From Patescibacteria group bacterium (GTDB lineage: Bacteria; Patescibacteriota; Patescibacteriia; Magasanikbacterales; GWA2-37-8), in contig SCQK01000001.1 of the NCBI GenBank assembly GCA_004321885.1, forward strand, positions 1-55,574: a stretch of 55,574 bases of DNA. The letters run 5' to 3'. The first letter of the stretch is position 1, and every line of letters starts with the position of its first letter. Under the pieces are notes generated by a model. The model was not told where the DNA came from. It saw nothing but the letters and a program-made list of their open reading frames with translations, and did no database searches. Positions 15,322 through 54,580 of this stretch are shown here, piece by piece. The position numbers and the translations under genes are program-made.

Positions 15322-15324
15322 CGT

Positions 15325-15349: not shown

Positions 15350-15355
15350 GTTCAC

Positions 15356-15456
15356 GTTCGCTGCCGGCGAATATGTTCTCGCTTTCCTCGCCCGCGAGGG
15401 CTCGGCCATCCCGACTGAGTCGGGATAAGGCGCTGCGAACACATTCGCCGGCAGCT
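15356..15456. repeat. composite nested palindromic element with a family-B core
   Basis: gctgccggcgaatatgttc ... cccgactgagtcggg ... gaacacattcgccggcagc, between rpmH and rnpA. Confidence 0.6.
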
Positions 15457-15510
15457 TGTTTGCTTCAACATGTACTCTGACTTCTTCGCATGGTATAATT
15501 ATCAAACATT

Positions 15511-17712: not shown

Positions 17713-18996
17713 CTACTGCAGTAGGTCGTCAAGTTCGCATGCAAGCAGGGCTGATTTGTTTAATAATATCTGCTCATTTGGATTTAATTTGTCCGCTGTC
17801 ATTCTTATAACTTTGGTTGCAATTCCATTCCCGAGCATTACGTTGTTTGTTTTTTTTAGGTAATCCTCATTTTTTTTATTAAAAAGCGAGGCATACTTTT
17901 TTAATTTTTTTTGAGTCGCGGAGTTTGAACGGGCGTCATTGCCGGAGAATTCAATTTTTTTATCAATTTTTTTATCTATTTCTATTGGCAGGTCTCCTTC
18001 TCTAAATTCAATCCAGTAGTCGCTGGTGGCATAAATAATTTTAACAGCGCTACCTTCTTCCGTCGCGTATCTAAAAATAAAAGAAAAATTTTCAGTGTGA
18101 AAATCCTGGTGAATGGAAATTTTTTCCAGTTCTTTAACGGTGTGGATTTCATAATCGTCTAAAAGCTGCCGATAACTTTCACGCCAATTTTTTAGCCAGT
18201 TTTTGATATAGGTCTGATTCACGAATAATGGCGAAAGATCGTTATTGAGATTTTCATCACTCACCCTATTCATTTGTATGGTCAGTTTATCAAAAAGAGT
18301 TCGCACACCCTTCACCTCAATATTTTTCGCCGTTAGGTAATCAAAATCCGGCACGATTTTTTTGCTCATGTACCAAAGTAAATCATAAATATCCCGCCCC
18401 TTTTCTTCATAAATAGCGTCTCCTACGCCGCGCGTGCCGCGCAAAAAAATAGCGGCTAATTTGCTGGCCATCAAGGCGGACATGTTGTAAGTTAAGATGA
18501 CAAAAGAAAGCTGGCCATGGTTTATTGGGCGCCGATCAGTGACTGTCTTTGGAGCGCTAAAATGGTTGAGGTCTATTTTTACGTGCACCTGATTGGAGGG
18601 ATGGCCGAGATTGAGTTCGTTGCCGACATGAAATTTCAAAAGCAATCCGCGGCCATTGTTGATCTTAGTGGTCAGAAAATCGGAATTGGCTCCATACGTA
18701 TTTATGAAATATTTTTCAATTTCATTTTTTAATTTTTCCAAGAATTTATCCGTTACTTCGCCAATAACTTCAAAATCCAAATCCTCGGACATGCGGTCAA
18801 GTCCGTGGATTACGCGCAGAGCCGACCCGCCATACATAGTCCATTGGCTGTACTGGGCGTGGTGATAAATAAAATTGAGAACATAATACTGCAGTTCTTC
18901 TTTGAGAGAGACGCGCCGCGTCATGGCGTCTAGGCCGCCATAGGCGGCAAGGTCATCAAGCTTTTTTTTCAGAACCATTGTTATTTGTTCGCTCAT
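17713..18996 (-). CDS. abiEii: AbiEii/AbiGii-family nucleotidyltransferase toxin (type IV TA / abortive infection) with a ~130-aa C-terminal extension
   Basis: MYGGSALRVIHGLDRMSEDLDFEV is the DUF1814 NTase motif. Overlaps abiEi by 4 nt. Confidence 0.8.
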   Translation of the reverse strand: MSEQITMVLKKKLDDLAAYGGLDAMTRRVSLKEELQYYVLNFIYHHAQYSQWTMYGGSALRVIHGLDRMSEDLDFEVIGEVTDKFLEKLKNEIEKYFINTYGANSDFLTTKINNGRGLLLKFHVGNELNLGHPSNQVHVKIDLNHFSAPKTVTDRRPINHGQLSFVILTYNMSALMASKLAAIFLRGTRGVGDAIYEEKGRDIYDLLWYMSKKIVPDFDYLTAKNIEVKGVRTLFDKLTIQMNRVSDENLNNDLSPLFVNQTYIKNWLKNWRESYRQLLDDYEIHTVKELEKISIHQDFHTENFSFIFRYATEEGSAVKIIYATSDYWIEFREGDLPIEIDKKIDKKIEFSGNDARSNSATQKKLKKYASLFNKKNEDYLKKTNNVMLGNGIATKVIRMTADKLNPNEQILLNKSALLACELDDLLQ

Positions 18997-19682: not shown

Positions 19683-20540
19683 TCATTCCACCAGCTTCAA
19701 GAGTCGTTCGTGCGAGGCGCTGTTACTGGCGATAAGCTCGGTGTCGGTGAGCTGCCAATCCTGGCCCGCGAAGTTGGTGACCCGACCGCCGGCCGAGCGC
19801 ACCAAAAGCACGCCGGGAAGCACATCCCACGGGTGGATTTCGCTCATTACACAGCCGTGGGCACGGCCGCAAGCCACATACGACATTTCTATGCCCGCCG
19901 AAGACAAGATTCTGAAGCGGGTTGTTTTTGTATTGAGCCGTTCAATAATTTTGAGGAGATGCTTTTGCGCCGCGTCCGAGTGGCCGCCGCAAAATAAAAA
20001 CATCTCTTTGTCGCCGTGGTTATTATTGCCTGCGACGTGAATTTTTTGCTTATTCAAATACGCGACGCCCTTGTCGCTCCAAAAAATTTCCTTGTCCATG
20101 GGTATGCCGATTACTCCGATGTCAATCGTGTCGCGGTCGGCGCGCGACAGGCAGGTGGCAAACAGACGAATGCCAAAGGCAAAATTGGTGGTGCCGTCCA
20201 GCGGGTCTATGAACCACATTTTTTCACCCGGGTTGTCTATGGGCCGGTCTTCCTCGCTGGTGATATCGTCGCTCGGGAAATGCTTGAGCAGTTCGGCGGT
20301 GATAAATTTGTTGGCGCTGAAATCCGCGTCAGTGACAATTTCCTCGCCTTTTTTCAGCTTCACATGGTCCAAACCGAATTTTTGGAATTTTTTGGCCAGC
20401 AGTTTATTGGTTTTTTGCACGATTTTTATGGCGATTTTGAGGTCTTTGGTCATAATTGTCATTCTGAGCACATTCGCTCCGCTCAGTGTAAACTCCGCGA
20501 AGAATCCCTGCGCTTCGCGTTTGTTTAAGGGATTCCTCAC
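19683..20540 (-). CDS. suhB: inositol monophosphatase family protein
   Basis: Contains the WFIDPLDGTTNF motif and the rest of the IMPase fold motifs. GTG start. Confidence 0.8.
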   Translation of the reverse strand: MRNPLNKREAQGFFAEFTLSGANVLRMTIMTKDLKIAIKIVQKTNKLLAKKFQKFGLDHVKLKKGEEIVTDADFSANKFITAELLKHFPSDDITSEEDRPIDNPGEKMWFIDPLDGTTNFAFGIRLFATCLSRADRDTIDIGVIGIPMDKEIFWSDKGVAYLNKQKIHVAGNNNHGDKEMFLFCGGHSDAAQKHLLKIIERLNTKTTRFRILSSAGIEMSYVACGRAHGCVMSEIHPWDVLPGVLLVRSAGGRVTNFAGQDWQLTDTELIASNSASHERLLKLVE

Positions 20541-21394
20541 CCCTTTGGGGTTCGGAATGACAGTGAGCGAAGTTTCTTCAAAGTTTTTAGATCCTCCCCT
20601 ACCTTGTCATGCTCGGTTTCCAGCACGAAGTTGATTTTTTGCAGGCGTTTGTCCGAGAGCAGGGCGCTGAAGCCGGGCAAGCCGATAAGCCCGTCGCCGA
20701 TATGCTCGTGGCGGTCGCGGCGGGAAGCGAATTCGGTCTTGGAATCATTGCAGTGCGACAGTTTTAGTTTTTCCAAGCCGATGATTTTATCAAATTTTTT
20801 CAAAGTTTCGCCTACGGCTTCGGCCGAGCGTAAATCATAGCCGCTGGCAAAAGCGTGCTGGGTGTCAAAGCACACGCCGATGCCGTATTTTTTCAGTTTG
20901 GGGTGGAAAATTATTTCCGCGATTTCTTCAAAGGTATCGCCGATTATTTCGCCGGTTCCGGCTGACATTTCTATCAGAAATTTAGCCGTGCCTTTGTATC
21001 CGTTAAGTATTTTTTCTAACCCTTCCACTAATTGCGTATAGCCCTTTTTTGCGCCCAGGTCTTTGTAGCTACCCAAATGAGTCATTAAGTACTTGGCGCC
21101 CAGTATTGACGCGCGTTCCAATTCCTGCCGCACTACGCCGACAGACGCGTGCTTGACGCGCGGATTGGCCGAGGCAAAGTTAATAAAATATGGAGTGTGA
21201 ACATAGCACTCTTTTTGTTTGGCCAGTTTGAGGTTTTTCTTGAATTCTTTCGCCACCGCCTCATCGCAGGGCGGCACCCACCCGCCCTGGGGCGAGCGCG
21301 TGAACATCTGAAAAACCTCGCAGCCCAGGCGGGCGGCGTTCGTCGGTGCATTGGGCAGACCGCCGGCAATAGATACATGAGCGCCAAAAAGCAT
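20537..21394 (-). CDS. nfo: endonuclease IV (AP endonuclease family 2)
   Basis: MLFGAHVSIAGG...CFDTQHAFASGYD...HCNDSK. The internal Met is preferred as the start, because the longer ORF running to 21439 would overlap tig. Confidence 0.85.
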   Translation of the reverse strand: MLFGAHVSIAGGLPNAPTNAARLGCEVFQMFTRSPQGGWVPPCDEAVAKEFKKNLKLAKQKECYVHTPYFINFASANPRVKHASVGVVRQELERASILGAKYLMTHLGSYKDLGAKKGYTQLVEGLEKILNGYKGTAKFLIEMSAGTGEIIGDTFEEIAEIIFHPKLKKYGIGVCFDTQHAFASGYDLRSAEAVGETLKKFDKIIGLEKLKLSHCNDSKTEFASRRDRHEHIGDGLIGLPGFSALLSDKRLQKINFVLETEHDKVGEDLKTLKKLRSLSFRTPKG

Positions 21395-22692: not shown

Positions 22693-22703
22693 ATAAGCAA
22701 ATT

Positions 22704-22731
22704 GTCATTCCCGCGAAAGCGGGAATCCAGG
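22704..22731. repeat. palindromic repeat family A
   Basis: gtcattcccgcgaaagcgggaatccagg, upstream of tig. Confidence 0.8.
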
Positions 22732-28592: not shown

Positions 28593-31271
28593 ATGAATCG
28601 CTTAATAATTTTAGACGGCAATGCCATAGTGCATCGCGCCTACCATGCTTTGCCTCCGCTGACCACCAAAGACGGCAAGATGGTGAATGCGGTTTATGGA
28701 TTCGCTTCCATGCTGTTAAAGGTTTGGCAGGATTTGAAACCCACGCACATCGCGGTAACTTTTGACATGGCTGGGCCCACTTTTCGGCACGTTAAATTTA
28801 AAGAATATAAAGCCACGCGCGTGAAGGCGGCTCAAGAATTGTACGACCAGATTCCCCTGACGCACGAACTGGTGTCCGCGTTCGGTCTGGCGATTTACGA
28901 AAAAAAGGGTTATGAGGCCGATGATGTCATCGGCACGCTCGTGGAAAAAACCAGAGACAGCGGTGCCGAGATTTTTATTGTTACCGGCGACAAAGACACC
29001 TTGCAACTGGTGGGCGGCAACGTGAAAGTGTACACCTTGCGCAAGGGCATGAGCGACATCGCGGTTTATGATACCGAGGAAGTGCGGCGCAAGTTTGGTT
29101 TCGGGCCGGAGCTGGTGGTGGATTACAAGGCCCTGGCCGGCGACCCTTCGGACAATATTCCCGGCGTGCCGGGCATTGGCGAAAAGACGGCGACCGAGTT
29201 GATTAAAAAGTTTGGCGGGATTAAGGAGATATATAAAAGAATAGAGAATAAAGAATTTAGAATAAAAGGTGAAATTAAAGATGGCGTGATAAAAAAGTTG
29301 GAAGCTGGCAAAGACAGCGCCCAAATGAGCAAAGAGCTGGCGACTTTGGATTGCGCCGTGCCTGGTTTGGATTTTAAGTTTGATGACTGCAAATTAAAGG
29401 AACTTGATAAAGAAAAAATTATAAAACTTTTCAGCGAATTGGAATTCGTGTCATTGCTCAAGAGAGTGCCGGAGTTCGCGCAGTCGGAAATTGTAAAATC
29501 CCAGTCGCGAAAAATAAAGGACAAAGAAGCGGATTTCAAATTCAATGAAATTAGCGATAAGACGGGATTGGGGAAGCTGAAAAAAATAATACGAGAAAAA
29601 AAGATTTTTGCCTGCCGTTATTTGTCCGGTTTGGTTTTTGTCGTCGGACACGAAGGATTTTTCGTGAAAAAAGAAATGGTTGGCGAGTGCGAGGAAATAT
29701 TTACCGACCCAGAGCTGGAATTGGTGGGGCATGATTTGAAACAGATAGTGAAGGCCATTAAAACAAACCCTCCCCTATTAGGGGAGGGACAGAGGGTGGG
29801 GTATGTCGCCAACAAACTTTTTGACGTCATGGTGGCTTCGTATCTGCTGGCCCCAGGCAGTCGGGCGCATGGCGCGGCTGACATTGTTTTTAAGGTTTTG
29901 GGCAAGCAGTTGCCGGCCGGCACTGGTCAGGAAAGCTTGTTTGGCGTGGACGCGAAGGAGGCGGCGCAAGAGTTGTATTTGCTGGCGCAAGCCGCGGACA
30001 AGCTGAAAGCCGAGTTGATGAAAATTGACGATTATGGCTTGTTTCAAAAGGTGGAAATGCCGCTGGTGTTGGTTTTGGCCGAGATGGAGCTGAACGGAAT
30101 GGCGGTTGATTTGGATATTTTGAGCGAGCTGTCTAAAAAAGTCAGCGGCGAAATTAAAAGCGTGAGCAAAAAGATTTATAAAATGGCGGGCGAGGAGTTT
30201 AACATCGCTTCGCCCCTGCAGTTGCGCGAAGTTTTGTTTGAGAAAATGAATATCCCGACCGAGGGGATAAAAAAAGGCAAGACCGGTTTGTCCACTTCGG
30301 CCGAAGAGCTGGAAAAAATGCGCGGCCTGCATCCGGTAATTGAAGAAATAGAGAATTACCGCGAGCTGGCTAAATTACAAAACACCTATATTGATGTTTT
30401 GCCGACTTTGGTGGACAAAAAAACCGGACGCATCCACACGACTTTTAATCAGACCGTGGCGGCTACCGGCCGGTTGTCCAGTTCAGACCCGAATTTGCAA
30501 AATATTCCCATCCGCACCGAGCTGGGCCAGGAAGTGCGCAAAGCGTTTGTGGCCGGAAAGGGAAATTTGCTGGTGGGCGCGGATTATTCGCAGATAGAAT
30601 TGCGCATCGTGGCGTCACTAGCCGAAGACCAAAAGATGATTGAGATTTTTGAGGCCGGCGAAGACATCCACCGGGCTACGGCCGCGGCTATAAACAACGT
30701 ACCTTTGGAAGCGGTGACCAAAGAGATGCGTCGCGCGGCAAAAGAAGTGAACTTCGGTGTGCTCTATGGCATGGGCGTGCATGGCCTCTCCTGGCGCGCG
30801 GGTATTCCTTATACCCAGGCCAAAGATTTTATTGACAAATATTTTCAGCAGTTTAGCGGAGTGAAAAAATATATTGACCGCACTTTGGAACTGGCCAGAA
30901 AAGACGGTTATTGCGAGACCCTGTTTGGCCGCCGCCGCTATATTCCCGAGCTCAATTCCGACAATCATCAGTTGCGCGCGGCCGCCGAGCGCATGGCCAT
31001 CAATCATCCGGTGCAAGGCACGGCCGCTGACCTGATCAAAATGGCGATGATTGAGGTTTCTAATGTCATTACGAGGAGCGAGGCGACGAAGCAATCCCCT
31101 TCGCCCAAACTCATCCTCCAAGTCCACGACGAATTGGTTTTGGAAGTCAAGGCCGACCAGGCCCAGGCCGTGGCCGCCGAAGTAAAAAAGGCCATGGAAA
31201 GCGTTATCAAACTCCGCGTGCCCGTGGAAGCCCACGTCAAAACCGGCCAGAGTTGGTGGGAACTAAAATGA
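28593..31271 (+). CDS. polA: DNA polymerase I
   Basis: 5'-3' exonuclease N-terminal domain (ILDGNAIVHRAYHA), a 3'-5' exo-like region, and polymerase motifs A, B and C (DYSQIELRI, RRAAKEVNFGVLYG, VHDE). Carries in-frame insertions from repeat families D and C. Confidence 0.95.
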   Translation: MNRLIILDGNAIVHRAYHALPPLTTKDGKMVNAVYGFASMLLKVWQDLKPTHIAVTFDMAGPTFRHVKFKEYKATRVKAAQELYDQIPLTHELVSAFGLAIYEKKGYEADDVIGTLVEKTRDSGAEIFIVTGDKDTLQLVGGNVKVYTLRKGMSDIAVYDTEEVRRKFGFGPELVVDYKALAGDPSDNIPGVPGIGEKTATELIKKFGGIKEIYKRIENKEFRIKGEIKDGVIKKLEAGKDSAQMSKELATLDCAVPGLDFKFDDCKLKELDKEKIIKLFSELEFVSLLKRVPEFAQSEIVKSQSRKIKDKEADFKFNEISDKTGLGKLKKIIREKKIFACRYLSGLVFVVGHEGFFVKKEMVGECEEIFTDPELELVGHDLKQIVKAIKTNPPLLGEGQRVGYVANKLFDVMVASYLLAPGSRAHGAADIVFKVLGKQLPAGTGQESLFGVDAKEAAQELYLLAQAADKLKAELMKIDDYGLFQKVEMPLVLVLAEMELNGMAVDLDILSELSKKVSGEIKSVSKKIYKMAGEEFNIASPLQLREVLFEKMNIPTEGIKKGKTGLSTSAEELEKMRGLHPVIEEIENYRELAKLQNTYIDVLPTLVDKKTGRIHTTFNQTVAATGRLSSSDPNLQNIPIRTELGQEVRKAFVAGKGNLLVGADYSQIELRIVASLAEDQKMIEIFEAGEDIHRATAAAINNVPLEAVTKEMRRAAKEVNFGVLYGMGVHGLSWRAGIPYTQAKDFIDKYFQQFSGVKKYIDRTLELARKDGYCETLFGRRRYIPELNSDNHQLRAAAERMAINHPVQGTAADLIKMAMIEVSNVITRSEATKQSPSPKLILQVHDELVLEVKADQAQAVAAEVKKAMESVIKLRVPVEAHVKTGQSWWELK
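29768..29802. repeat. family D repeat, in-frame in polA
   Basis: ccctcccctattaggggagggacagagggtggggt, translating to NPPLLGEGQRVGYV. Confidence 0.8.
31065..31104. repeat. half-copy of the family C element, in-frame in polA
   Basis: gtcattacgaggagcgaggcgacgaagcaatccccttcgc, translating to VITRSEATKQSPSPK. Confidence 0.6.
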
Positions 31272-32709: not shown

Positions 32710-32712
32710 TTA

Positions 32713-32792
32713 CCCCTCCCTAACCCTCCCCTTATAAAGGGGAGGGAAACGTATTGTTCCTCCCCCTTTATAAGGGGGAGGCGAGGAGGGGG
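32713..32792. repeat. tandem pair of family D repeats in the folD-purA intergenic region
   Basis: cccctccctaaccctccccttataaaggggaggg ... cctccccctttataagggggaggcgaggagggggt. Confidence 0.8.
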
Positions 32793-32799
32793 TAAACAT

Positions 32800-34116
32800 A
32801 TGTCACAACTTACTGTCGTGGTTGGCGCCCAGTGGGGCGATGAGGGCAAGGGGAAAATAACCGACTATCTGGCCAAAGACGCCGACTTTGTGGTTCGTTT
32901 CCAAGGAGGCAACAACGCCGGACATACGTTGGTAGTTGGGGATAAAATTTACAAACTACACCTGATTCCATCGGGTGTTTTGTATCCGGGCGCGGTTTCA
33001 ATAATCGGCAACGGCGTGGTGGTGGACCCGCTCACCCTGCTAAAAGAAATCAGCGAGTTTAAAAAAGACGGCCTGGCGCTTAATCTAAAAATCAGCAACC
33101 GTTGTCATGTCATCATGCCATATCACATTGCCTTGGATGGGGCTTTGACCGGACATCAGGGCGGGCTGGCCGCCGGCAGCACCAACCGCGGCATTGCCCC
33201 GGTCTGCGCCGATAAAAGCTATCGTCACGGCATCCGGCTGGGCGATTTGCTGGAACCGGAAATGCTTCGGGAAAAATTAGCCGTGTCATACAATTTCAAC
33301 AAAGCGATTTTGGAAAAAATTTTTAACACGCCTTTCGCCCTGTCGGAAGAAGAAATTTATAATCAGTTTTTGGATTATGGCAAATTATTGGCGCAGTACA
33401 TTGACGATACTGATGTTTTGCTTTATCGCGCCTACAAAGAAGGCAAAAATATCTTGTTTGAAGGGGCGCAGGGTTTGTCCTTGGATCTGGATGTCGGCGT
33501 GTACCCGCATACCACCAGCACCAACACGTTGGCCAGCCATATCGGCGTGGGCACGGGCGTGGGATACGACGGGAATAAACGCGTAATCGGAGTGGCCAAG
33601 GCATACGTGAGCCGCGTGGGCACCAGTCCTTTTATCACCGAACTGCCCGAAGAAGAAGCCAAGGCCTTGCGCGACAAGGGCGGCGAATACGGCACGACCA
33701 CTGGCCGTCCGCGCCGCGTGGGCTGGCTGGATTTGGTGCAACTGCGGCAGGCCGTGCGCTGTAACGGGCTGACTGAATTGGCGCTCATTAAATTGGACGT
33801 GCTAGCCGATTATGAAAAAGTGTTGGTTTGCACCTCGTATGATATAGATGGAAAAGACACCAGAGAAATGCCGGCCAGTTTGTCGCAGTTGCGCCGGGCC
33901 AAACCGGTTTATCAAGAATTCACCGGTTGGCCGGTGATAGATGGAACGGCTTTGAAACAAGGCGGGTTTAAGGGGTTGCCGCTTGAGATAAAAAACTTTG
34001 TGGAGTTTATTGAGAAAGAAACAGAGTGTCCGATCAGTATGTTGTCGTTCGGACCGGAGCGGGAACAAACCATTATTCGTGTCATTGCGAGCGAAGCGAA
34101 GCAATCCCATTCGTAA
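32800..34116 (+). CDS. purA: adenylosuccinate synthetase
   Basis: QWGDEGKGKITD, GGNNAGHT and GTTGRG motifs. The C-terminal 12 aa are encoded by the family C repeat. Confidence 0.95.
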   Translation: MSQLTVVVGAQWGDEGKGKITDYLAKDADFVVRFQGGNNAGHTLVVGDKIYKLHLIPSGVLYPGAVSIIGNGVVVDPLTLLKEISEFKKDGLALNLKISNRCHVIMPYHIALDGALTGHQGGLAAGSTNRGIAPVCADKSYRHGIRLGDLLEPEMLREKLAVSYNFNKAILEKIFNTPFALSEEEIYNQFLDYGKLLAQYIDDTDVLLYRAYKEGKNILFEGAQGLSLDLDVGVYPHTTSTNTLASHIGVGTGVGYDGNKRVIGVAKAYVSRVGTSPFITELPEEEAKALRDKGGEYGTTTGRPRRVGWLDLVQLRQAVRCNGLTELALIKLDVLADYEKVLVCTSYDIDGKDTREMPASLSQLRRAKPVYQEFTGWPVIDGTALKQGGFKGLPLEIKNFVEFIEKETECPISMLSFGPEREQTIIRVIASEAKQSHS

Positions 34117-34163
34117 TTATAGGGATTGCTTCGGTCCCGACTAAGTCGGGGCCTCGCAATGAC
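34081..34163. repeat. composite nested palindromic element (family C arms gtcattgcgag...gaagcaatccc / gggattgcttcg...ctcgcaatgac enclosing a family-B core)
   Basis: Spans the purA stop and the annotated purL start. Confidence 0.8.
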
Positions 34164-36540
34164 AACATCAAATATGATAACGACTGATTTCACGAAAATG
34201 GATGAAGCGCAAATAAAGGAATTTTTGGTTGCCAACAGAATCGCGCTGACGGTGGAAGAAATTTTGAAGATCCAAAACGAAATCTTGAAACGGCCACCCA
34301 CGCTGGCCGAGTGTATTTTGTGGTCCATTCAGGGATCAGAGCACAGCTCGTACAAATCCAGTCGTCCGCACTTGAAACAATTTCACACCAGCGGTCCCAA
34401 CGTAATACTCGGCCCCAGTGAAGACGCCGGCATTGTGGAAATTTGCTGCGACAACGAGGGCCGAAAATACGGCGTAGTGATAAGCCACGAATCGCACAAT
34501 CATCCGTCGCAAGTGGTGCCCTACGAGGGCGCGGCCACGGGCGTAGGCGGCAATGTGCGCGATGTCTGCTGCATGGGCGCGAAAGTAATCGCCTGCGCCG
34601 ACCCTCTGCGCTTCGGACAAATTGACAGTAATAAATCCAAATGGGTGCACGAGGGCGTGGTCTCGGGCATTGCCGGCTATGGCAATCCAATCGGCGTGCC
34701 AAACATCGGCGGCGACTTGTATTACGACGAATCCTACAATGAAAATTGTCTGGTCAACATTGTTACTTTGGGTGTCTTGCGCGAAGACGACATCATACAC
34801 TCGCGCGCGCCGCAAAACGCCGATGGTTATGATTTGGTTTTGGTCGGCAAGCCAACTGACAACAGCGGCTTTGGTGGCGCCAGTTTTGCTTCGTTGGAAT
34901 TAAAAGAAGAAGAAAAAGAACTCAACAAGGGCGCGGTGCAGGAGCCGAACGCTTTTTTGAAGCGCCATTTGCTCAAATCCACCTACGCGCTTTTCAAAAA
35001 AATAAAAGAGGGCGGTTTGATGGATAAAGTGGGTTTCAAAGATTTGGGCGCCGGAGGAATTGCCTGCGCTTCAGTGGAATTGGCCGACGCGGCCGGCTAT
35101 GGCGCCGAAGTGGATATTGATAAAATCCCCAAGGGCATGAACGGACTTAATCCGGCCGTGATTTTGTGCTCCGAGACGCAGGAAAGATTTATGTGGGTGA
35201 GTCATCCGGACGTGACACCGGTTATTTTGGAGCATTATAATGAAATCTTTGATTTGCCCGGCATTGCCGAAGGCGCGCGAGCGGCGGTGGTGGGGAAAAT
35301 TCGCGCTGACGGGCGCTATGTGGTGACAGCCGGCGGAGAAGAAATCGTGAGCGCGCGAGCGCAAGACGTGACACGGGGATTATTGTACAATCGGCCATGG
35401 GAAAAACCCGAGAAAAAATTGAGTGAACCAAACTTGCCCGAGCCAACCGATTACAGTGAAATACTTTTAAAAATTTTGGCCCACGAAAATGTGGCCTCGC
35501 GTTTGCCGGTTTATGAACAGTACGACAAGCAAGTGCAGGGCATCACAATGATTGAATCGGGCCGGGCTGACGCGGGCGTTTTGCAGCCATTTAAGGATGA
35601 CAGTTACCCGGAGGAAATTCGGCAAACCGGCGTCGCTTTGTCAGTGGACCAAAATCCGCGCTACTCCAAGATTGATTCTTATTGGGGGGCGGTAAACGCG
35701 GTAGTGGAAAGCTGCCGCAATGTGGCGGCTGTCGGCGCTGTGCCGTGGGCGTTGACCGATTGTTTGTGCTATGGCAATCCGGAAAAGCCAACCCAGATGT
35801 ATGAATTCGTGGAAGGGGCGCGCGGGGTGGCCGAGGCGGCCAAGGGTTTGCATTTGAAGGACTTCCCGGAAAATCCGGTGCCGATTGTTTCGGGCAATGT
35901 GTCGCTTTACAACGAAAGCAAAGGCAAACCCATCGCTCCCAGCGCCATAATTTCATGCACCGGAAAATTGAGCGACGTGAAGTGCGCGATTGACATGTCG
36001 TTTAAAAAAGCCGACTCAATTATTTTTATGGTCGGCGAGCGCAAAGACGAATGCGGGGGCAGTGTTTATTATAATTTGTTTAAAGAATTGGGAGCCAATG
36101 TACCCAAGCCGGATTTGGCGGAAGCGGAAAAACAAATTTTTGCCGTGACTGACGCGATAGAGGCTGGTCTGGTTTTGGCGGCTCACGATATTTCCGACGG
36201 CGGCTTGGCCGTCTGCTTGGCCGAGATGAGTTTTGGAAATGAGATTGGTTTCGTCTGTCATTCCCGCGAAAGCGGGAATCCAGGGTCGCAACTTCGCCCC
36301 GACAAAGTTCTTTTTTCCGAAACCGGCGGTTTTGTTTTGGAAGTGTCGCCGGAAAACCGCGGCGCAGTGGAAGAAATTTTCGCCAAACGCGGAGTAAAAA
36401 TCTTTGCCATCGGAAAAACCGCCTGTCATTCCGGGCTTGACCCGGGATCCATAACAACGTTAAAGTTTGGAGATGTAATCAACGTACCTTTAAAAGAAGC
36501 AAAAAAAGCGTGGACAGAGGGTTTGTGGGGCAAGCTGTAA
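34126..36540 (+). CDS. purL: phosphoribosylformylglycinamidine synthase subunit PurL
   Basis: PurM-like duplicated domains of FGAM synthase II. The true start is probably MTTSNM at ~34159. Contains an in-frame family A repeat (VCHSRESGNPGSQ). Confidence 0.9.
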   Translation: MLRSRLSRGLAMTTSNMITTDFTKMDEAQIKEFLVANRIALTVEEILKIQNEILKRPPTLAECILWSIQGSEHSSYKSSRPHLKQFHTSGPNVILGPSEDAGIVEICCDNEGRKYGVVISHESHNHPSQVVPYEGAATGVGGNVRDVCCMGAKVIACADPLRFGQIDSNKSKWVHEGVVSGIAGYGNPIGVPNIGGDLYYDESYNENCLVNIVTLGVLREDDIIHSRAPQNADGYDLVLVGKPTDNSGFGGASFASLELKEEEKELNKGAVQEPNAFLKRHLLKSTYALFKKIKEGGLMDKVGFKDLGAGGIACASVELADAAGYGAEVDIDKIPKGMNGLNPAVILCSETQERFMWVSHPDVTPVILEHYNEIFDLPGIAEGARAAVVGKIRADGRYVVTAGGEEIVSARAQDVTRGLLYNRPWEKPEKKLSEPNLPEPTDYSEILLKILAHENVASRLPVYEQYDKQVQGITMIESGRADAGVLQPFKDDSYPEEIRQTGVALSVDQNPRYSKIDSYWGAVNAVVESCRNVAAVGAVPWALTDCLCYGNPEKPTQMYEFVEGARGVAEAAKGLHLKDFPENPVPIVSGNVSLYNESKGKPIAPSAIISCTGKLSDVKCAIDMSFKKADSIIFMVGERKDECGGSVYYNLFKELGANVPKPDLAEAEKQIFAVTDAIEAGLVLAAHDISDGGLAVCLAEMSFGNEIGFVCHSRESGNPGSQLRPDKVLFSETGGFVLEVSPENRGAVEEIFAKRGVKIFAIGKTACHSGLDPGSITTLKFGDVINVPLKEAKKAWTEGLWGKL
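36257..36284. repeat. family A repeat, in-frame in purL
   Basis: gtcattcccgcgaaagcgggaatccagg. Confidence 0.8.
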
Positions 36541-36896: not shown

Positions 36897-38060
36897 ATGT
36901 CAAACATCTCTTATTCCGATTCCGGCGTCAATTACCAGGCGCTTGATCCGGTGAAAAAATTGGCGCAAATCGCGGCCCGGTCCACGGCTCGTCATTTGTC
37001 GTCGTCCGGTTTCACCGAATCAGAAGACACGCGCGGCGAGTCGGCTTATGTTTGGCAGCAAGGCGACCTCCTGATGGCCTCGGTCATTGAAGGCCTGGGC
37101 ACCAAAAATTTGGTGGCTGACGCCATGCGTAAAATTACCGGCAAGACCTATTACGATATTGTCAGCCACGATACTGTGGCTACGATTATAAACGATCTTG
37201 TTTCGGTGGGCGCCAAGCCGCTTGCTCTCTTCGCTTACTGGGCCGTGGGCAAAAGCGAATGGCTGGCCGACGCGGAAAGGACAAAGGATTTGGCGGACGG
37301 CTGGAAGTCGGCTTGTGATTTAGCCCAAGTTTCCTGGGGAGGCGGCGAAACCCCCGCCTACGCCGGCATCATTAATCCGGAGACCATTGATTTGGCAGGT
37401 TCGGCCGTGGGTATTATTAAAGATAAAAATAATTTGCTCACGGACAAAAAAATACAGGCCGGAGACAGGATAATTTTTTTGAAAAGCAACGGCATAAACG
37501 CCAACGGTTTGTCGCTGGCGCGCGCGATTGCAAATACCCCCTCCTCGCCTCCCCCTTATAAAGGGGGAGGAAATCGTCTCCCTCCCCTTTATAAGGGGAG
37601 GGTTGGGGAGGGGTATGGTGCCAAGCTGCCAAGTGGCGTAATGTACGGAGAAGCATTACTCACAAAAACAAACATCTACGCGAAATTGGTACAGGACTTG
37701 CAGGCGGCAGAAGTAGATATACATTATATTACAAATATCACCGGACATGGATTGCGTAAAGTTATGCGCGGTAGGCCGAATTTTACATACGTAATAGAGA
37801 AAATTTTTGAACCGCTGGAATTATTTATTTTTATGCAAGGTCAGGCCGGGCTTTCGGATTTTGAAATGTATCAGACGTTTAACATGGGGCAGGATTACGC
37901 GATTTACTTATCAGCCGCCGACGTGGCCCGCGCTTTGGAAGTGATAAAACAAAATAATTTTACAGGCATTGAGGCGGGTTTTGTGGAAGCGGGCGAAAAG
38001 CGCGTGATAATCAAACCGAAGAATTTAGAGTATAAAGGAGAGACGTTGGATTTGAGATAA
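36897..38060 (+). CDS. purM: phosphoribosylformylglycinamidine cyclo-ligase (AIR synthetase)
   Basis: SYSDSGVNYQALDP and PurM N- and C-terminal domain patterns. Contains a tandem in-frame family D insertion (SPPPYKGGGNRLPPLYKGRVGEG). Confidence 0.85.
   Translation: MSNISYSDSGVNYQALDPVKKLAQIAARSTARHLSSSGFTESEDTRGESAYVWQQGDLLMASVIEGLGTKNLVADAMRKITGKTYYDIVSHDTVATIINDLVSVGAKPLALFAYWAVGKSEWLADAERTKDLADGWKSACDLAQVSWGGGETPAYAGIINPETIDLAGSAVGIIKDKNNLLTDKKIQAGDRIIFLKSNGINANGLSLARAIANTPSSPPPYKGGGNRLPPLYKGRVGEGYGAKLPSGVMYGEALLTKTNIYAKLVQDLQAAEVDIHYITNITGHGLRKVMRGRPNFTYVIEKIFEPLELFIFMQGQAGLSDFEMYQTFNMGQDYAIYLSAADVARALEVIKQNNFTGIEAGFVEAGEKRVIIKPKNLEYKGETLDLR
37537..37614. repeat. tandem family D repeats, in-frame in purM
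   Basis: cccctcctcgcctcccccttataaagggggagg...cctcccctttataaggggagggttggggaggggt. Confidence 0.8.
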
Positions 38061-39413: not shown

Positions 39414-40805
39414 ATGGATTACACTTCCATCATCAGACAAAATCTGAATAATTGTCTGACGCAGACGAATTTAAATATCGGCAAGAAAAAAATTGGCAAG
39501 GTGCGCGATACCTATGAACTCGCCGATAAAATGATTCTAGTCACTACTGACCGACAGAGCGCTTTTGACCGCATTTTGGCTTCCATCCCGTTTAAGGGGC
39601 AAGTGCTCAATCAAACCAGCGCCTGGTGGTTTGAAAAAACCAAACACATTATCCCCAATCATGTTTTGTCTATCCCCGACCCCAACGTGACCATGGCCAA
39701 AAAATGCCAAGTTTTTCCGATTGAGTTTGTGGTGCGCGGGTATATCACCGGCACCACCGACACTTCGGCTTGGGTAAATTATCAAAAAGGGGTGCGTAAT
39801 TTTTGCGGCAACGCTTTACCCGAGGGTCTGAAAAAAAATCAGCAGCTGGCCAAGGCGATTGTCACGCCCACCACCAAGTCCGACGCCCACGACCGTCTGA
39901 TCAGTCCCGAAGAGATTATCGCCGAAGGACTGATGTCGCGTGAAGATTGGAACTTCGCTTCAACCAAGGCCCTGGAACTTTTTGAATTCGGCCAACAAGT
40001 GGCTCGCGAGCACGGCTTGATTTTGGTTGACACCAAATACGAGATGGGTAAAGACGAAAACGGCAATATTATTTTGTTAGACGAGATCCACACGCCCGAT
40101 TCCAGTCGCTATTGGATCGCCGAAACATACGAAGACCGTTTCGCCGCCGGACAAGAACCGGAAAACATAGATAAAGAATTTTTGCGCTTGTGGTTTAAAG
40201 AACACTGCGACCCGTATGGCGACAAAGAACTGCCGCCGGCGCCCGAGGAATTGGTGGTGGAATTATCCCGCCGCTATATCATGCTTTACGAAATGATTAC
40301 TGGCGAAAAATTTGTTTTCCCGGAGGACGCCGACATCAACGAGAGAATGAAAAATAATTTGGCTGTCATCGCGAACTCTCCTCTGAGAATAAACTCCGCA
40401 AAGCAACCCCCCGCAAAAAGGGCGGTGATAATAATGGGTTCGGAAGCGGACGCGGAGTTCACGAAAAAGATTACGATAAAATTGGACGAACTGGGGGTCA
40501 GCCACGAAGAGCATGTCGCGTCGGCGCACAAACAGCCGGCAAAGGTTTTGGAAATTTTAGAGAAAAATAAAAATGAGAAAGTGGTGTACGTGACCATCGC
40601 CGGCCGTTCCAACGCGCTCTCGGGTTTTGTGGCCGCCAATTCCGACGCGCCCACCCTGGCCTGTCCACCCTTTGTCGACAAGCTGGATATGCTCGTGAAC
40701 ATTCACTCTACTTTGCAGATGCCGAGTAACGCGCCAGTTTTAACCGTGCTTGATCCAGGCAACTGCGCCTTGGCCGTTAAAAGAATTTTTGATATATGTC
40801 GCTAA
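39414..40805 (+). CDS. purC: fusion protein: SAICAR synthetase (PurC) plus C-terminal PurE (AIR carboxylase / N5-CAIR mutase) domain
   Basis: PurC N-terminal motif GKVRDTY...VTTDRQSAFD. PurE C-terminal motif AVIIMGSEADAE...VASAHKQP...VTIAGRSNALSGFVAANSDAPTLACPP. Confidence 0.85.
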   Translation: MDYTSIIRQNLNNCLTQTNLNIGKKKIGKVRDTYELADKMILVTTDRQSAFDRILASIPFKGQVLNQTSAWWFEKTKHIIPNHVLSIPDPNVTMAKKCQVFPIEFVVRGYITGTTDTSAWVNYQKGVRNFCGNALPEGLKKNQQLAKAIVTPTTKSDAHDRLISPEEIIAEGLMSREDWNFASTKALELFEFGQQVAREHGLILVDTKYEMGKDENGNIILLDEIHTPDSSRYWIAETYEDRFAAGQEPENIDKEFLRLWFKEHCDPYGDKELPPAPEELVVELSRRYIMLYEMITGEKFVFPEDADINERMKNNLAVIANSPLRINSAKQPPAKRAVIIMGSEADAEFTKKITIKLDELGVSHEEHVASAHKQPAKVLEILEKNKNEKVVYVTIAGRSNALSGFVAANSDAPTLACPPFVDKLDMLVNIHSTLQMPSNAPVLTVLDPGNCALAVKRIFDICR

Positions 40806-42130: not shown

Positions 42131-42132
42131 TT

Positions 42133-42214
42133 GTCATTGCGAGGAGGCCTGCAGGCCGACGCGGCAATCCCTTACAAGTTTGGGATTGCTTCGGCCTAAA
42201 GGCCTCGCAATGAC
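42133..42214. repeat. family C composite palindromic element filling the purB-purF intergenic region
   Basis: gtcattgcgag-gaggcctgcaggcc...gcaatccc / gggattgcttcggcctaaaggcc-tcgcaatgac. Confidence 0.8.
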
Positions 42215-42222
42215 AAAATTCT

Positions 42223-45072
42223 ATGTGCGGAGTTGTAGGAATTTATTCCAAAAAACCAGTGGCGCAGGAATTGTATGATTCTTTAATCCACTTACAGCAT
42301 CGCGGGCAAGACGCGGCCGGCATTTTGACGTACCAAGAAAAATTTCATTTCAAAAGGGGGCTGGGACTGGCGCGCGATATTTTCCACACGCACGACATGG
42401 AGCGGCTCACCGGCAATATCGGCATCGCGCACACGCGCTACCCCACCACCGGCCGCATTGAAATTGAAGATGCCCAGCCGTTTTGGACCGGCGTGCCTTT
42501 TGGCATGGCCTTGGCGCATAACGGCAATCTGGTAAATTACAACGAGGTCAAGCGTAAGGTTTTTGAAGAACGTCATCGCTATGTCAACTCCACCAGCGAC
42601 GGCGAAGTAATTTTGCACGTGTTGGCCGATGAGTTGGTAAAAGGCATGGCAGAAAATCACGTTGATACTTTTTTTGACCTGCTGTGCGACGCCGTGGCCC
42701 GTCTTTTCAAAGCGACCAGCGGAGCATATTCAGTGGTCAGCATTATCGTGGGCAAGGGCATGCTGGCGTTTCGCGATCCGCATGGCATCCGTCCGCTCAC
42801 GCGTGGCGCGCGCGTCAATCCCGATGGCAGCAAGGACTATATTTTTGCTTCCGAAAACATCATGTTTTATCCGCTTGGCTTTAAGCAAGAAGAGGATGCA
42901 AAACCCGGCGAGGTGATATTTATAGACAACGACGGCAATTTACACAGCAGAGTGGTTGGACGCGAAGCCGCTTTGGGCCAGCGCGAACCCGAATTTTCTC
43001 CTTGCATTTTTGAATACATTTATTTCGCGCGCCCAGACTCTATGATGAATAACGTGAGCGTGTACCGCTCGCGTCTGCGCATGGGACAAAATTTGGCCAA
43101 GGCGTGGAAGACAAAATTTCCCAACGTAATGCCCGACGTCGTCATACCCGTGCCTTTCACTTCCAACACCGCGGCATTGGCCATGGCGCACGAACTCGGC
43201 GTGCGCTACAGCGAAGGACTTTATAAAAACGCCTTCATCGGCCGCACTTTTATCATGCCCAATCAGGAATTGAGGCGAAAGTCAGTGCGCTACAAGCTTA
43301 ATCCGCAGGAAACGGAAATTCGGGACAAAAATGTGATGCTTTTGGACGACAGCATCGTGCGCGGCACGACCAGCCGTGAAATCGTGCAAATGATGCGTGA
43401 GTTTGGAGCCAAGGAAGTATATTTTGTCACCACTTGCCCGCCGGTCAAATTTCCGTGCTTTTACGGAGTGGACATGCCTACGAAATCAGAACTTGTCGCG
43501 TCGGCCCGGACCGAAGAAGAAGTGAGATTATATATCGGCGCTGATATTTTGCTTTATCAAAACATTCCCGACTTGGTGGAAGCAGTCACGCGCGTTCAAA
43601 GCATAGAGCACCCATGTATGGCTTGCCTGAACGGGCACTACGTGACCGGCGACGTGGATGAAAAAAAATTTAAAGAAATAGAAGCGAGTAGAAATAAAGA
43701 TAAGGGGATTAAAAAATCTATGGATATACTTATTATCGGTTCAGGAGCACGCGAGCATGCGATTGCGCGCGCGGTGGTTCGCTCACCGCAAAAACCGCGG
43801 CTGTTTTGTTTTGCTTCAAGCAACAACCCGGGCATACGCGAACTATCGGTCGGTTACGCGGTGGGAAAAATTACCGACCCAACGGCGGTGATAAATTTCG
43901 CCAAAGAGAACGCGATTGATATCGCTATCGTGGGCCCCGAAGCCCCGCTGGCCTCTGGCGTGGCTGACGCCTTGTGGGCGGCAGGCGTGGCTTGTGTTGG
44001 ACCAAAGCAAAAATTGGCGCGGCTGGAAACGAGTAAGGGTTTTACGCGCGATTTACAGGCCGAATTTAAGATTCCGGGCAGTCCGAAATACAAAAAATTC
44101 AGTTCTTTGGAAGGGGCTAAAGAATTTTTATCCGAGCTCGGCGATTTGTACGTGGTAAAAGCGGACGGCCTGATGGGAGGCAAAGGAGTGAAAGTGGCCG
44201 GGGATCATTTGCATACTTATGAAGAAGCGCTGGCCTATTGTCAGGAATTATTGGATAGTTGTCATTCCCGCGAAAGCGGGAATCCAGGTGCGGCCTTTGT
44301 CATCGAAGAAAAGTTAATCGGCCAGGAATTTTCACTGATGAGTTTTTGCGACGGCGAGCATTTGGCTCACACGCCCGCGGTTCAAGATCACAAGCGGGCT
44401 TTTGACGGCGACCAGGGGCCAAACACGGGAGGCATGGGAAGTTATAGCGACGCGGATCATAAATTGCCTTTTTTGACTGATGAAGATATCTGGCAGGCGC
44501 GCGAGATAAATAAAAAAACCGCGGTGGCTTTGAAGGCGAAATTCGGGGAGGGATATGTTGGTGTTTTGTATGGAGGATTTATGGCTACGGCGGACGGAGT
44601 AAAATTGATAGAGTATAATGCCCGTTTGGCCGACCCGGAGGCGATGAACATATTGGCCGTGCTGGAATCGGATTTCGCGGCGCTGTGTCAGGCGATTGTG
44701 GGCGGAAATTTAAGACAAGAGCACGCGCTTTTCGCGAACAAGGCGACGGTTTGTAAATACGCCGTGCCCGAGGGCTACCCGGACAGTCCGGTAAAAAATC
44801 AAAAAATAGACACGAGCGGCGTAGCCGACAAAAATCAATTGTATTTGGCTTCGGTTGACGCGCGAGATGATGGGTTGTACGAACTGGGCTCGCGCGCCAT
44901 CGCGGTGGTGGGCGTGGCCGATACAATTGCCGAGGCGGAAAAAATTGCGGAAGCGGAAGTCAACAATATCAAAGGCCCGCTGTTTCACCGTCAAGACATT
45001 GGAACTCCGGAATTAATTAATAAGAGAATCCAACACATGTCATTCCTGCGAAAGCAGGAATCCAGGATATGA
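42223..45072 (+). CDS. purF: fusion protein: amidophosphoribosyltransferase (PurF) plus phosphoribosylamine-glycine ligase (PurD)
   Basis: N-terminal MCGVVGI nucleophile and PRTase domain to ~aa 480. A continuous frame then runs into the PurD ATP-grasp domain (MDILIIGSGAREHAIA...). Two in-frame family A repeats. Confidence 0.85.
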   Translation: MCGVVGIYSKKPVAQELYDSLIHLQHRGQDAAGILTYQEKFHFKRGLGLARDIFHTHDMERLTGNIGIAHTRYPTTGRIEIEDAQPFWTGVPFGMALAHNGNLVNYNEVKRKVFEERHRYVNSTSDGEVILHVLADELVKGMAENHVDTFFDLLCDAVARLFKATSGAYSVVSIIVGKGMLAFRDPHGIRPLTRGARVNPDGSKDYIFASENIMFYPLGFKQEEDAKPGEVIFIDNDGNLHSRVVGREAALGQREPEFSPCIFEYIYFARPDSMMNNVSVYRSRLRMGQNLAKAWKTKFPNVMPDVVIPVPFTSNTAALAMAHELGVRYSEGLYKNAFIGRTFIMPNQELRRKSVRYKLNPQETEIRDKNVMLLDDSIVRGTTSREIVQMMREFGAKEVYFVTTCPPVKFPCFYGVDMPTKSELVASARTEEEVRLYIGADILLYQNIPDLVEAVTRVQSIEHPCMACLNGHYVTGDVDEKKFKEIEASRNKDKGIKKSMDILIIGSGAREHAIARAVVRSPQKPRLFCFASSNNPGIRELSVGYAVGKITDPTAVINFAKENAIDIAIVGPEAPLASGVADALWAAGVACVGPKQKLARLETSKGFTRDLQAEFKIPGSPKYKKFSSLEGAKEFLSELGDLYVVKADGLMGGKGVKVAGDHLHTYEEALAYCQELLDSCHSRESGNPGAAFVIEEKLIGQEFSLMSFCDGEHLAHTPAVQDHKRAFDGDQGPNTGGMGSYSDADHKLPFLTDEDIWQAREINKKTAVALKAKFGEGYVGVLYGGFMATADGVKLIEYNARLADPEAMNILAVLESDFAALCQAIVGGNLRQEHALFANKATVCKYAVPEGYPDSPVKNQKIDTSGVADKNQLYLASVDARDDGLYELGSRAIAVVGVADTIAEAEKIAEAEVNNIKGPLFHRQDIGTPELINKRIQHMSFLRKQESRI
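44261..44288. repeat. family A repeat, in-frame in the purD portion
   Basis: gtcattcccgcgaaagcgggaatccagg, translating to SCHSRESGNPGA. Confidence 0.8.
45039..45066. repeat. family A variant (cctgcg/cagg) at the purFD 3' end / purN start
   Basis: gtcattcctgcgaaagcaggaatccagg. Confidence 0.75.
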
Positions 45073-50593: not shown

Positions 50594-50631
50594 CTGGATT
50601 CCCGGTCGCCTGTGGCGACAGGGAATGACAG
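50594..50631. repeat. family A-related palindrome variant
   Basis: ctggattcccggtcgcctgtggcgacagggaatgacag. A TGtTATACT extended -10 lies just upstream at ~50557. Confidence 0.6.
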
Positions 50632-52920: not shown

Positions 52921-52977
52921 TTGGAAATGCTTTACTTCGTTCAGAAAAAGGGTCATTGGGATTTGGAAATTTAAGGG

Positions 52978-53604: not shown

Positions 53605-54580
53605 TATGTTTTTTTTGTCATTGCGAGTCACGAAGTGGAGAAGCAATCCCTCGCATTGGGCAGGGGATTGCTTCGTCGCTCTGCTCCTCGCAATGACACT
53701 GCTTCCTTCCCCCGTCAGTGCGGTTAGCATCTCTCCATCCAAAGCGTTTGTTACCATAGACCCGGGCGCTAGCCAGACAATGATTTTGAAAATTAAAAAC
53801 GATGGGCCGCGAGACGCGCGCTATAAACTTTTGGTTTTGGGAGCCAAGCAAAATGAAAACGGGGATTTATTTTACGGCGCGAATTTTTGGCCGGCCGAAA
53901 CCTGGGTTCAGCCTGAAAGCAATGTGGTGGAAGTAGGGGCCGGCCAAGAGCGTAAAGTAATTTTTGAAATCAACGCGCCGCGTGATGCCGCGCCCGGTTC
54001 CAATTATCTTTCATTGCAGGTTGAGCCGAGCTCGTCGGCAGGCGCTGGCGGGGTGCAGTTGCAGGCCCGCGTAGCCTCGCTTTTAATTTTGCAGGTGGCG
54101 GGAAGCGTGCGCGAGGAATTGGAAATTTTACAATGGTCTCCGCGAGCCTACTCTTGGCGCAAAGCAGTCTGGCCTTTTGAGCTTATCGCGCAAAACAACG
54201 GCCCTGTTGAGGTGGAAACTGCAGCGCGAGTAGTCGTGAAAAATTGGTTGGGCCGGGAAAAAATTATAAAAGAAATTGAACTGGGAAAAATTTTAGCCGG
54301 CGCCATACGGGTTTCGCATCAGGAAGTTAAACCACACGGGGTCGTTTATTGCAAAGGTCTTTGTCCGACAATATATACGCCCGATTCAAAAATTTGGCTG
54401 CCGGGCAGATACACGGTAAAAACAGAAATCAAATACGGGCTGACCAAGCAAACCGCGCGCGCCGAGGCACAAGTCTGGTTTTGGCCTTTATGGAGCCTTT
54501 TAGCTGGCCTACTACTTATTGTAGTAGGTAGTCTCGCTGGCTCCATAGCGCTTCGTAAAGCTCGCTCGCTGGCTCCATAG
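53555..54580 (+). CDS. hypothetical cell-surface protein with a C-terminal TM anchor (true start probably ~53693, after the repeat)
   Basis: C-terminal anchor FWPLWSLLAGLLLIVVGSLAGSIAL. The stop codon is supplied by a family B repeat. Confidence 0.55.
   Translation: MPSTRTLLPSLRRINCDMFFLSLRVTKWRSNPSHWAGDCFVALLLAMTLLPSPVSAVSISPSKAFVTIDPGASQTMILKIKNDGPRDARYKLLVLGAKQNENGDLFYGANFWPAETWVQPESNVVEVGAGQERKVIFEINAPRDAAPGSNYLSLQVEPSSSAGAGGVQLQARVASLLILQVAGSVREELEILQWSPRAYSWRKAVWPFELIAQNNGPVEVETAARVVVKNWLGREKIIKEIELGKILAGAIRVSHQEVKPHGVVYCKGLCPTIYTPDSKIWLPGRYTVKTEIKYGLTKQTARAEAQVWFWPLWSLLAGLLLIVVGSLAGSIALRKARSLAP
53617..53697. repeat. family C composite palindromic element
   Basis: gtcattgcgag...gaagcaatccc / ggggattgcttcg...ctcgcaatgac. 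Confidence 0.8.

Follow-up and report, generated by a model that had tools for sequence, protein, structure and literature searches.

Introduction

The closest described relatives of the repeats considered here are the CGTC-tagged REPs, which have been divided into the families CGTC-1 to CGTC-4 (Di Nocera, De Gregorio & Rocco 2013, BMC Genomics 14:522; PMC3733652). These units carry the tag CGTC, often TGTC (or CCTC), a stem starting with A-T and T-A pairs, and a tail near CCA; they occur mainly as inverted dimers, often heterodimers, between co-directional genes and close to where an ORF ends at its 3' side, are found in frame within genes, notably replication and repair genes including that of DNA polymerase I, and have no dedicated transposase. 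The paper equates CGTC-1 of R. conorii with RPE-6, its CGTC-4 with RPE-4, and CGTC-1 of Neisseria with dRS3.

Here, we analyse a stretch of 55,574 nt from a Patescibacteria group bacterium of the Magasanikbacterales (assembly GCA_004321885.1, contig SCQK01000001.1, positions 1 to 55,574, forward strand), referred to as the window. A first-pass annotation of this DNA had pointed to nested palindromes, termed family C, at gene junctions of a purine operon, with a half-copy inside polA, and had proposed that they could act as RNA hairpins modulating mRNA stability or translational coupling. According to our analysis, family C most probably (at a rough probability of 0.8) represents inverted dimers, and one singleton, of a small non-autonomous CGTC/TGTC-tagged repeat of the REP class.

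Results

Three composite palindromes of about 82 bp were found in the window, and a fourth, single unit resides in polA (Table 1). The sequences of all four elements were confirmed at the sites annotated before and are far above chance: at one mismatch or less, GTCATTGCGAG occurs 8 times in the window as compared to 0.97 expected, a number reached in 0 of 100 shuffles, and GAAGCAATCCC occurs 7 times at 1.42 expected. The earlier gene identities of the purine operon and polA similarly agree with Pfam, which identified the neighbouring genes as PolA, FolD, PurA, PurL, PurB and a PurF-PurD fusion. As nearest relatives we used three Ca. Magasanikbacteria loci (L242-L244), in which PurA is 65-70% identical and the gene order is kept. 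The genes purF and purD, fused in a 949-aa ORF of the window, and purC and purE, fused in one of 463 aa, are separate genes in all three.

Copy 2 begins 2 nt after the purB stop codon and ends 8 nt before the purF start codon, and the apical loop of copy 1 contains the purA stop codon. In silico folding of the three full elements as RNA yielded long hairpins on either strand, with energies of -48 to -56 kcal/mol and z scores of -7.3 to -8.9, which bears out the proposed hairpin-forming potential at the operon junctions; folded as DNA, the same elements reach -33 to -34 kcal/mol (z about -9). No two copies in the window share an identical variable part, and the exact left-arm variant of copy 2 had no match in the metagenome collection, thus giving no sign of recent copying. 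A blastn search of plasmids with copy 2 returned no match at E <= 1e-3. A short-read Logan contig from SRR8426592 (L241, 2220 bp), which encodes an identical PurB, terminates within copy 2; this assembly break is probably due to the hairpin or to the repeat.

Table 1. Coordinates of the repeat units and of selected genes in the window; the strand given for repeats is that of the tag.
Feature	Position	Strand	Sequence or context
Copy 1, inverted dimer	34081-34163		purA-purL junction
Copy 1, left unit	34080-34107	+	codes PurA tail VIASEAKQSHS
Copy 1, right unit	34123-34164	-	B-core mini-hairpin at 34136-34150
purA stop codon	34114-34116		TAA
Copy 2, inverted dimer	42133-42214		occupies whole purB-purF intergenic space
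Copy 2, units	42132-42170, 42183-42215	+, -	own tip hairpin each: GGCCTGCAGGCC, GCCTAAAGGC
purB stop codon	42128-42130		
purF start codon	42223		ATG
Copy 3, inverted dimer, 81 nt	53617-53697		27 in-frame codons (SLRVTKWRSNPSHWAGDCFVALLLAMT) in signal-peptide region, CDS 53606-54580
polA single unit, ATT(A)C-type	31065-31097	+	in frame, VITRSEATKQSP, residues 825-836
Canonical CGTC-1 unit TGTCATTCCCGCGAAAGCGGGAATCC	36256-36281	+	in frame in purL (CHSRESGNP)
CGTC-3/4-like unit TGTCATTCCGGGCTTGACCCGGGATCC	36424-36450	+	in frame near PurL C-terminus (CHSGLDPGS); absent in relatives
Canonical CGTC-1 unit	44260-44285	+	in frame, PurD part of PurF-PurD
CGTC-1 unit TGTCATTCCTGCGAAAGCAGGAATCC	45038-45063	+	makes PurF-PurD C-terminus SFLRKQESRI and stop; just before ATGA overlap with purN (45069)
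Canonical CGTC-1 unit	22703-22728	+	intergenic, adjoins trigger factor gene
Canonical CGTC-1 unit	14955-14979	+	abuts dnaA ORF start, near GC-skew minimum
ATTCC-type unit	6795-6831	-	B-core mini-hairpin at tip: TGTCATTCC-GA-TCCCGACTTAGTCGGGA-GA-GGAATCC
Inverted dimer, ATTCT/ATTCC-type	20457-20562		units 20457-20507 (+) and 20530-20562 (-)
ATTCCC-type unit, inserted tip hairpin	50596-50630	-	upstream of TPR protein gene (50650)
B cores	6805, 15410, 34136, 47017, 50108, 50262, 54583		
CCCCTCC/GGAGGGG-rich palindromes	32710-32795, 37534-37616, 2344-2483		
Third repeat type	9285-9342, 52950-52975		
purF-purD ORF	42223-45072		
purC-purE ORF	39414-40805		
dnaN, dnaA, rnpA	12221-15520		
AbiEii-type toxin gene	17713-18996	-	

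The purine-rich strand of the unit, TGTCATTGCGAGCGNAGCGAAGCAATCC, for which a hairpin is predicted, follows the order (C/T)GTC - ATTGC - GAG - variable tip - CGAA - GCAAT - CC(A/C). The (C/T)GTC tag is unpaired, ATTGC and GCAAT pair as a basal stem of 5 bp, and GAG and CGAA form a conserved internal loop of purines; the tip is a mini-hairpin, in most cases GCGNAGC and in some a longer one such as the B core, and CC(A/C) makes up the tail. Two such units, with the tags pointing outward, the tails inward and a short variable spacer between them, make up the nested palindrome of about 82 bp, whose four-way layout combines an outer and an inner stem, the latter bearing a variable apical loop, with two tip hairpins. 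When public collections were scanned for one arm (GATTGCTTCG-N(4-30)-CTCGCAATGAC), arms were found singly, in tandem arrays and, most commonly, as inverted pairs; 82 of 102 adjacent unit pairs are inverted with their GTC ends outward, and the modal length of inverted pairs from other genomes (n = 137) is again 82 bp. As single units and tandem arrays are common, the half, and not the 82-bp whole, is the basic unit. The tandem arrays have a period of 33 bp in a viral contig and of about 50 bp in Chloroflexus (L046 2695-2818; L127 1372-1506; L015), and one phage contig carries six single units, all in the same direction.

Position -1 of the tag is a T (TGTC) in all units of the three dimers and likewise in the other tagged units of Table 1; among the 137 dimers from elsewhere it is a C in 87 and a T in 43, mirrored by G or A at position +1. 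The tail reads CCC in the window; elsewhere, GCAATC followed by CAG forms the commonest class (51/137). The five-nucleotide tip reads CGNAG in 130/164 units, where N can be any of the four bases, resulting in a GCGNAGC mini-hairpin. Of the longer tips, 39% contain a stem of 4 bp or more, as compared to 10% of shuffles. The tips in the window are GCGAAGC, GGCCTGCAGGCC, GCCTAAAGGC and the B core CCCGACTAAGTCGGG. Within a pair, the arms mostly carry unlike tips, the arm classes (11,5) and (5,11) together exceeding (5,5). Across phyla, about 42 nt of sequence are conserved.

Taken by itself, the canonical 26-nt unit folds weakly in a nearest-neighbour model (-2.7 kcal/mol, z -0.5). Additional stability would come from the GNA loop and from tandem G·A pairs, which such a model leaves unscored; in view of the weak fold, the unit hairpin is argued here from the pattern of variation and from this non-canonical G·A pairing. 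Sister types retain the frame of the unit, and their basal stems covary: ATTCT/AGAAT was found both in the window, next to ATTCC/GGAAT, and in L242, next to ATCCT/AGGAT, while ATCGC/GCGAT and ATTAC/GTAAT were found elsewhere. The GAG/CGA(A) loop is common to family C and the ATTCT and ATCCT types of L242, and the ATTCC variants of the window carry a GA...GA loop. Family C shares its tag, a stem that opens with AT, and its CC tail with the canonical CGTC-1 units (TGTCATTCCCGCGAAAGCGGGAATCC), which have an 8-bp stem and a GAAA loop.

Several of these canonical units reside in the window, some of them in frame (Table 1), together with variants at 6795, 20457/20530 and 50596 whose tips carry insertions. 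The CGTC-1 units of the window code for SFLRKQES, CHSRESGNP and VIPAKAGI, peptides that PMC3733652 lists for R. conorii CGTC-1. At the site of the canonical unit in purL, a relic (CHSRENGN) is present in L242 and the site is empty in L243; the unit in the PurD part represents a clean 9-aa insertion with regard to L243 and L244.

The B core, a 15-nt hairpin CCCGACT(A/T/G)AGTCGGG, is present seven times in the window; no fewer than three different palindrome families, among them GGCTCCATAG...CTATGGAGCC, carry it at their tips. In copy 1 it is nested, as annotated before, and belongs to the right arm. A unit combining ATTGC with the B core was identified at five unrelated metagenome loci (L245-L249), each time with a different partner arm. 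In its behaviour, the B core is either a tip variant that recurs or a very small module nested in other repeats. Two further repeat types were observed in the window: a CCCCTCC/GGAGGGG-rich palindrome family around TTATAAAGG, with one copy at the folD-purA junction and a second within the region of a purM-like ORF, and a type built on CCAAATCCCAA..CCAATGACC / GGTCATTGGGATTTGG, one strand of which starts with GTCATTGG.

A comparison with the relatives reveals that the spacers at purA-purL and purB-purF measure 9 nt in L243 and L244 and are empty. In L242, a different small palindrome is located at purA-purL, and two direct REP units, one of them of the ATTGC type, are located at purB-purF. The empty spacers at the same junctions identify the elements as insertions; that family C is mobile would follow from this presence and absence across species at 65-70% protein identity. 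In accordance with an insertion, PurA of the window runs on past the end of its homologues (n = 120, 96-99% query coverage), for which 59 C-termini were examined and mostly end in ...QTIIR or K. The additional residues, VIASEAKQSHS, are read from the left arm of copy 1 and are missing in the orthologues. Thus, the first-pass annotation was right in that copy 1 supplies the end of PurA including the stop codon, the tail being 11 and not 12 residues long. The overlap of copy 1 with the start of purL, which had also been suggested, would require initiation at the ATG at 34159. The NCBI call (788 aa) and the alignment of MITTDFT with MFTTETI / MFTKDTI of the relatives both place the start at 34174, and purL therefore most likely begins there, 10 nt after copy 1.

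The elements occupy sites that tolerate an insertion: stop codons or the positions directly behind them, the space separating co-directional genes, loops at protein surfaces, and a signal peptide. Such tolerance offers the best explanation of why they are placed at junctions. In a rough census of the 137 dimers, 35% are located within 60 nt after a long open frame, and in a further 18% a long frame ends inside the element, a pattern which agrees with the REP positions given in PMC3733652. We also considered the ATG within the terminal CGCAATGAC as a general start, in the manner of an SD-hairpin-ATG module; this was rejected, with long frames in 62 of 419 cases as opposed to 57 of 419 for the control frame.

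In PolA, the unit resides in a variable loop between QGTAAD and LQVHDE (motif C). Its position in frame had been recognised before. It is, however, a complete single unit, and not a half-copy adding about 13 residues: some 11-12 codons derive from the unit, and the loop is longer by about 5 aa, the segment from QGTAAD to QVHDE comprising 40 aa as compared to 35 aa in the modal homologue, with 7 extra residues relative to Taq. Two other PolA homologues (P0125 and P0137) have REP-like inserts of 25-30 aa in the same pre-motif C loop, with the sequences CHSDRPSQGVEES...GYARDDS and VIPDRDPGSS.... Copy 3, which had been placed upstream of an ORF at 53555, lies instead within the gene of an annotated surface protein (TAN34267.1). 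Homologues of this protein have signal peptides of 20-26 aa, which end in A-x-A before F-S-I-S-P. The signal region with copy 3 reads MFF[LSLRVTKWRSNPSHWAGDCFVALLLAMT]LLPSPVSA, followed across the boundary by VSISPSK; the charged residues of the predicted signal peptide, and the larger part of its hydrophobic core, thus come from copy 3.

Copies are found elsewhere in very large numbers. Exact matches to a 21-base unit number at least 120 in a collection of species-representative genomes and at least 120 in a collection of viral contigs, and span many phyla. Among the matches listed are Proteobacteria (Bradyrhizobium, Sphingomonas, Rhodospirillales, Rickettsiales, Gamma- and Deltaproteobacteria, Helicobacter rodentium), Chloroflexi, Cyanobacteria (Nostoc, Microcoleus), Bacteroidota (Pedobacter, Chryseobacterium), Planctomycetota, Zixibacteria, Latescibacterota, Firmicutes (Sporomusa), Melainabacteria and Patescibacteria. 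In a set of related phage contigs (L003, L036, L050, L061, L085, L101 and L119), units reside between the portal, scaffold and major capsid genes, the same junction habit as in the pur operon.

Neither copy 1 nor copy 2 constitutes a terminator-like site, as there is no U-tract and the 3' flanks are A-rich; without a U-tract, transcripts would read through the elements. At the gathering score, Rfam identified only tRNAs in the window and no family for the elements, which at relaxed thresholds match miRNA-precursor models only, far below gathering. The elements of the pur operon would accordingly be co-transcribed as strong hairpins, which may protect the upstream mRNA and loosen the coupling of purA-purL and purB-purF as a by-product rather than a selected function. 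It is plausible that, as a side effect, the elements might influence the stability of the mRNA or translational coupling.

It might alternatively be argued that the hairpins have been selected in the purine operon at the RNA level, where they would stabilise the upstream cistrons, serve processing by RNase III or otherwise, or tune the translational coupling of purA to purL and of purB to purF. The RNA folds (-50 to -56 kcal/mol, z about -8), the expected read-through, the exact placement of copy 2 between the purB stop and the purF ATG, and the REP units at purB-purF in L242 are in line with this, and REPs and MITEs are able to stabilise mRNA according to PMC3733652. However, the same unit recurs in other phyla and other, unrelated contexts, as well as within phage structural modules and coding sequences, which in the window are those of PolA, PurL, PurD and a signal peptide, and the junctions are empty in the other relatives. 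In addition, both strands fold equally well, as is expected of a DNA palindrome and not of a strand-specific RNA, and the conserved parts are invariant rather than covarying, suggesting that a protein recognises the sequence and that RNA structure alone is not what is maintained. We therefore regard selection as RNA hairpins as unlikely. Of the regulatory interpretation given earlier, the hairpin potential and the read-through hold; there is no indication of an operon-specific regulatory device, given the breadth of the unit, the empty junctions of the relatives and the match of the family to a described class of selfish REPs (PMC3733652).

No target-site duplications were detected at the 137 dimers, direct flank identity being at expectation for k = 1-6, which speaks against a MITE of the DDE type. 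ORF clustering of 240 loci revealed no recurrent transposase beside the elements, and the ORF clusters nearest to them were exclusively phage portal, scaffold and capsid genes. Pfam detected no transposase or integrase domain in 39 ORFs of the window, tblastn with the Y1_Tnp protein of L243 as a query yielded no Y1 transposase homologue in the window or in about 2 Mb of collected loci, and a motif regex identified no RAYT in the collected loci. The Y1_Tnp gene of L243 (5403-6254, minus strand, 283 aa) is itself flanked by inverted repeats, TGTAATACAAGACCTGACCCC, which are unrelated to CGTC units; it represents a TIR-associated tyrosine transposase arrangement, with 0 CGTC units in the surrounding 21 kb.

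The outer arms, which form perfect inverted repeats of 11-12 bp (TGTCATTGCGAG), the modal length and the numerous dispersed copies would be compatible with a classical MITE, that is, a deletion derivative of an IS that is driven by a DDE transposase through these terminal repeats. This origin is nevertheless highly improbable, as target-site duplications are missing, single units and tandem arrays are common with the half as the unit, and no transposase recurrently adjoins the elements in the loci collected. Binding of REPs by IHF, Pol I and gyrase has been reported (PMC6006769). We attach equally little credence to a function as cruciform-prone sites by which the host would organise its chromosome through gyrase, nucleoid proteins or DNA polymerase I, following the E. 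coli BIME model: the conservation across phyla and the four ATTGC/GCAAT cores of each element would suit such a function, but the elements are found in phage contigs and within ORFs, and orthologous sites of relatives are devoid of them. Patescibacteria have small genomes with few chromosome-organising factors, and we know of no protein that binds the elements.

Discussion

Family C belongs to the described class of selfish REP repeats, and its host phylum and the phage contigs constitute an extension of that class. With regard to how such units move, we infer that they spread as single-stranded DNA hairpins which a trans-acting enzyme cuts and rejoins beside the tag, in analogy to the chemistry of REP/RAYT and IS200/IS605. 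The presence of dnaN, dnaA and rnpA and a cumulative GC-skew minimum at about 10-14 kb indicate that the replication origin is probably located within the window. Near this region resides a gene for an AbiEii-type nucleotidyltransferase toxin (type IV toxin-antitoxin / abortive infection). To the right of the skew minimum, the tag strand is on the plus strand, the lagging-strand template, in most single units, the unit at 50596 being an exception; this bias fits a single-strand mechanism, within a sample that is small and confounded by coding constraints.

More tentatively, it might be speculated that the YGTC-tagged REPs form one transposase-less mobile system, which phages carry across phyla and which a conserved host or phage enzyme acting on single-stranded DNA moves. 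Where Patescibacteria genomes are reduced, proteins would routinely take up its copies, as they do in Rickettsia, and at least one of these, copy 3, would now supply the charged and hydrophobic core of a working signal peptide. We consider this broader view to be doubtful at present.

The assignment explains what appeared as odd palindromes as members of one described class of selfish repeats, the range of which now takes in phage contigs and a Patescibacteria genome. It also illustrates how a selfish repeat remodels the ends and loops of proteins, here the PurA tail, PurL, PurD, the PolA loop and a signal peptide, which echoes the situation in Rickettsia. For annotation it is of value to recognise these units, as they create spurious ORFs and peptides and shift predicted starts and stops. 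The interest of the present case lies in the Patescibacteria host, the dense in-frame copies in housekeeping proteins and the breadth across phyla and phages with no mobilising enzyme known, and the question of how CGTC-type REPs move without a dedicated transposase is thereby sharpened. Literature searches with the DNA strings of the elements and the peptides encoded by them returned nothing relevant, nor did those on palindromic repeats in CPR, and RepRanger 2025 held nothing specific.

Like the CGTC REPs of PMC3733652, family C has the CGTC/TGTC tag, a stem that opens with AT and a CCA-like tail. It likewise forms inverted, often heterologous dimers with variable spacers, an arrangement also seen for the CGTC-1 dimers of R. 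conorii. The location near 3' ends between co-directional genes, and the in-frame copies including that in DNA polymerase I are further common features, and canonical CGTC-1 units are present beside family C in the same window. The published families have no dedicated transposase; for family C, none was found in the window and about 2 Mb of collected loci. In contrast, the stem of the published units is contiguous over 8-9 bp and closed by a loop of 4-5 nt, where family C has a 5-bp stem, a GAG/CGAA loop and a tip hairpin of 2-6 bp. The five phyla listed in that paper include neither Patescibacteria (CPR) nor phages, both of which are represented here, and the peptides of the ATTGC type, VIASEAKQS and DCFVALLLAMT, are absent from its list of intragenic REPs, with no matching sequence or peptide in its supplements.

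REPINs and BIMEs, which in E. coli and Pseudomonas are associated with RAYTs, resemble family C in that an inverted pair of REPs forms a long hairpin, that each unit is an imperfect palindrome with a 5' tag, and that they are intergenic and multi-copy, and the same single-stranded DNA mechanism is proposed for them. Their tag, however, is GTAG (GT[AG]G) and not YGTC, and no RAYT gene was found in the window and the collected loci. Moreover, REPIN-RAYT pairs are lineage-specific, whereas exact matches to the unit of family C span many phyla and phage contigs. Elhai et al. are said to have reported in 2008 that small dispersed repeats of cyanobacteria are nested in other repeats; the occurrence of the B core CCCGACTAAGTCGGG at the tips of several palindrome families may be comparable. 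RPE-4 and RPE-6 of Rickettsia, finally, belong to a different phylum, yet they are likewise short palindromes that have inserted, in frame, into the housekeeping proteins of an organism whose genome is reduced. For RPE-6/CGTC-1 the likeness extends to the encoded sequence itself, as the peptides SFLRKQES and CHSRESGNP, according to PMC3733652, are common to R. conorii and the units of the window.
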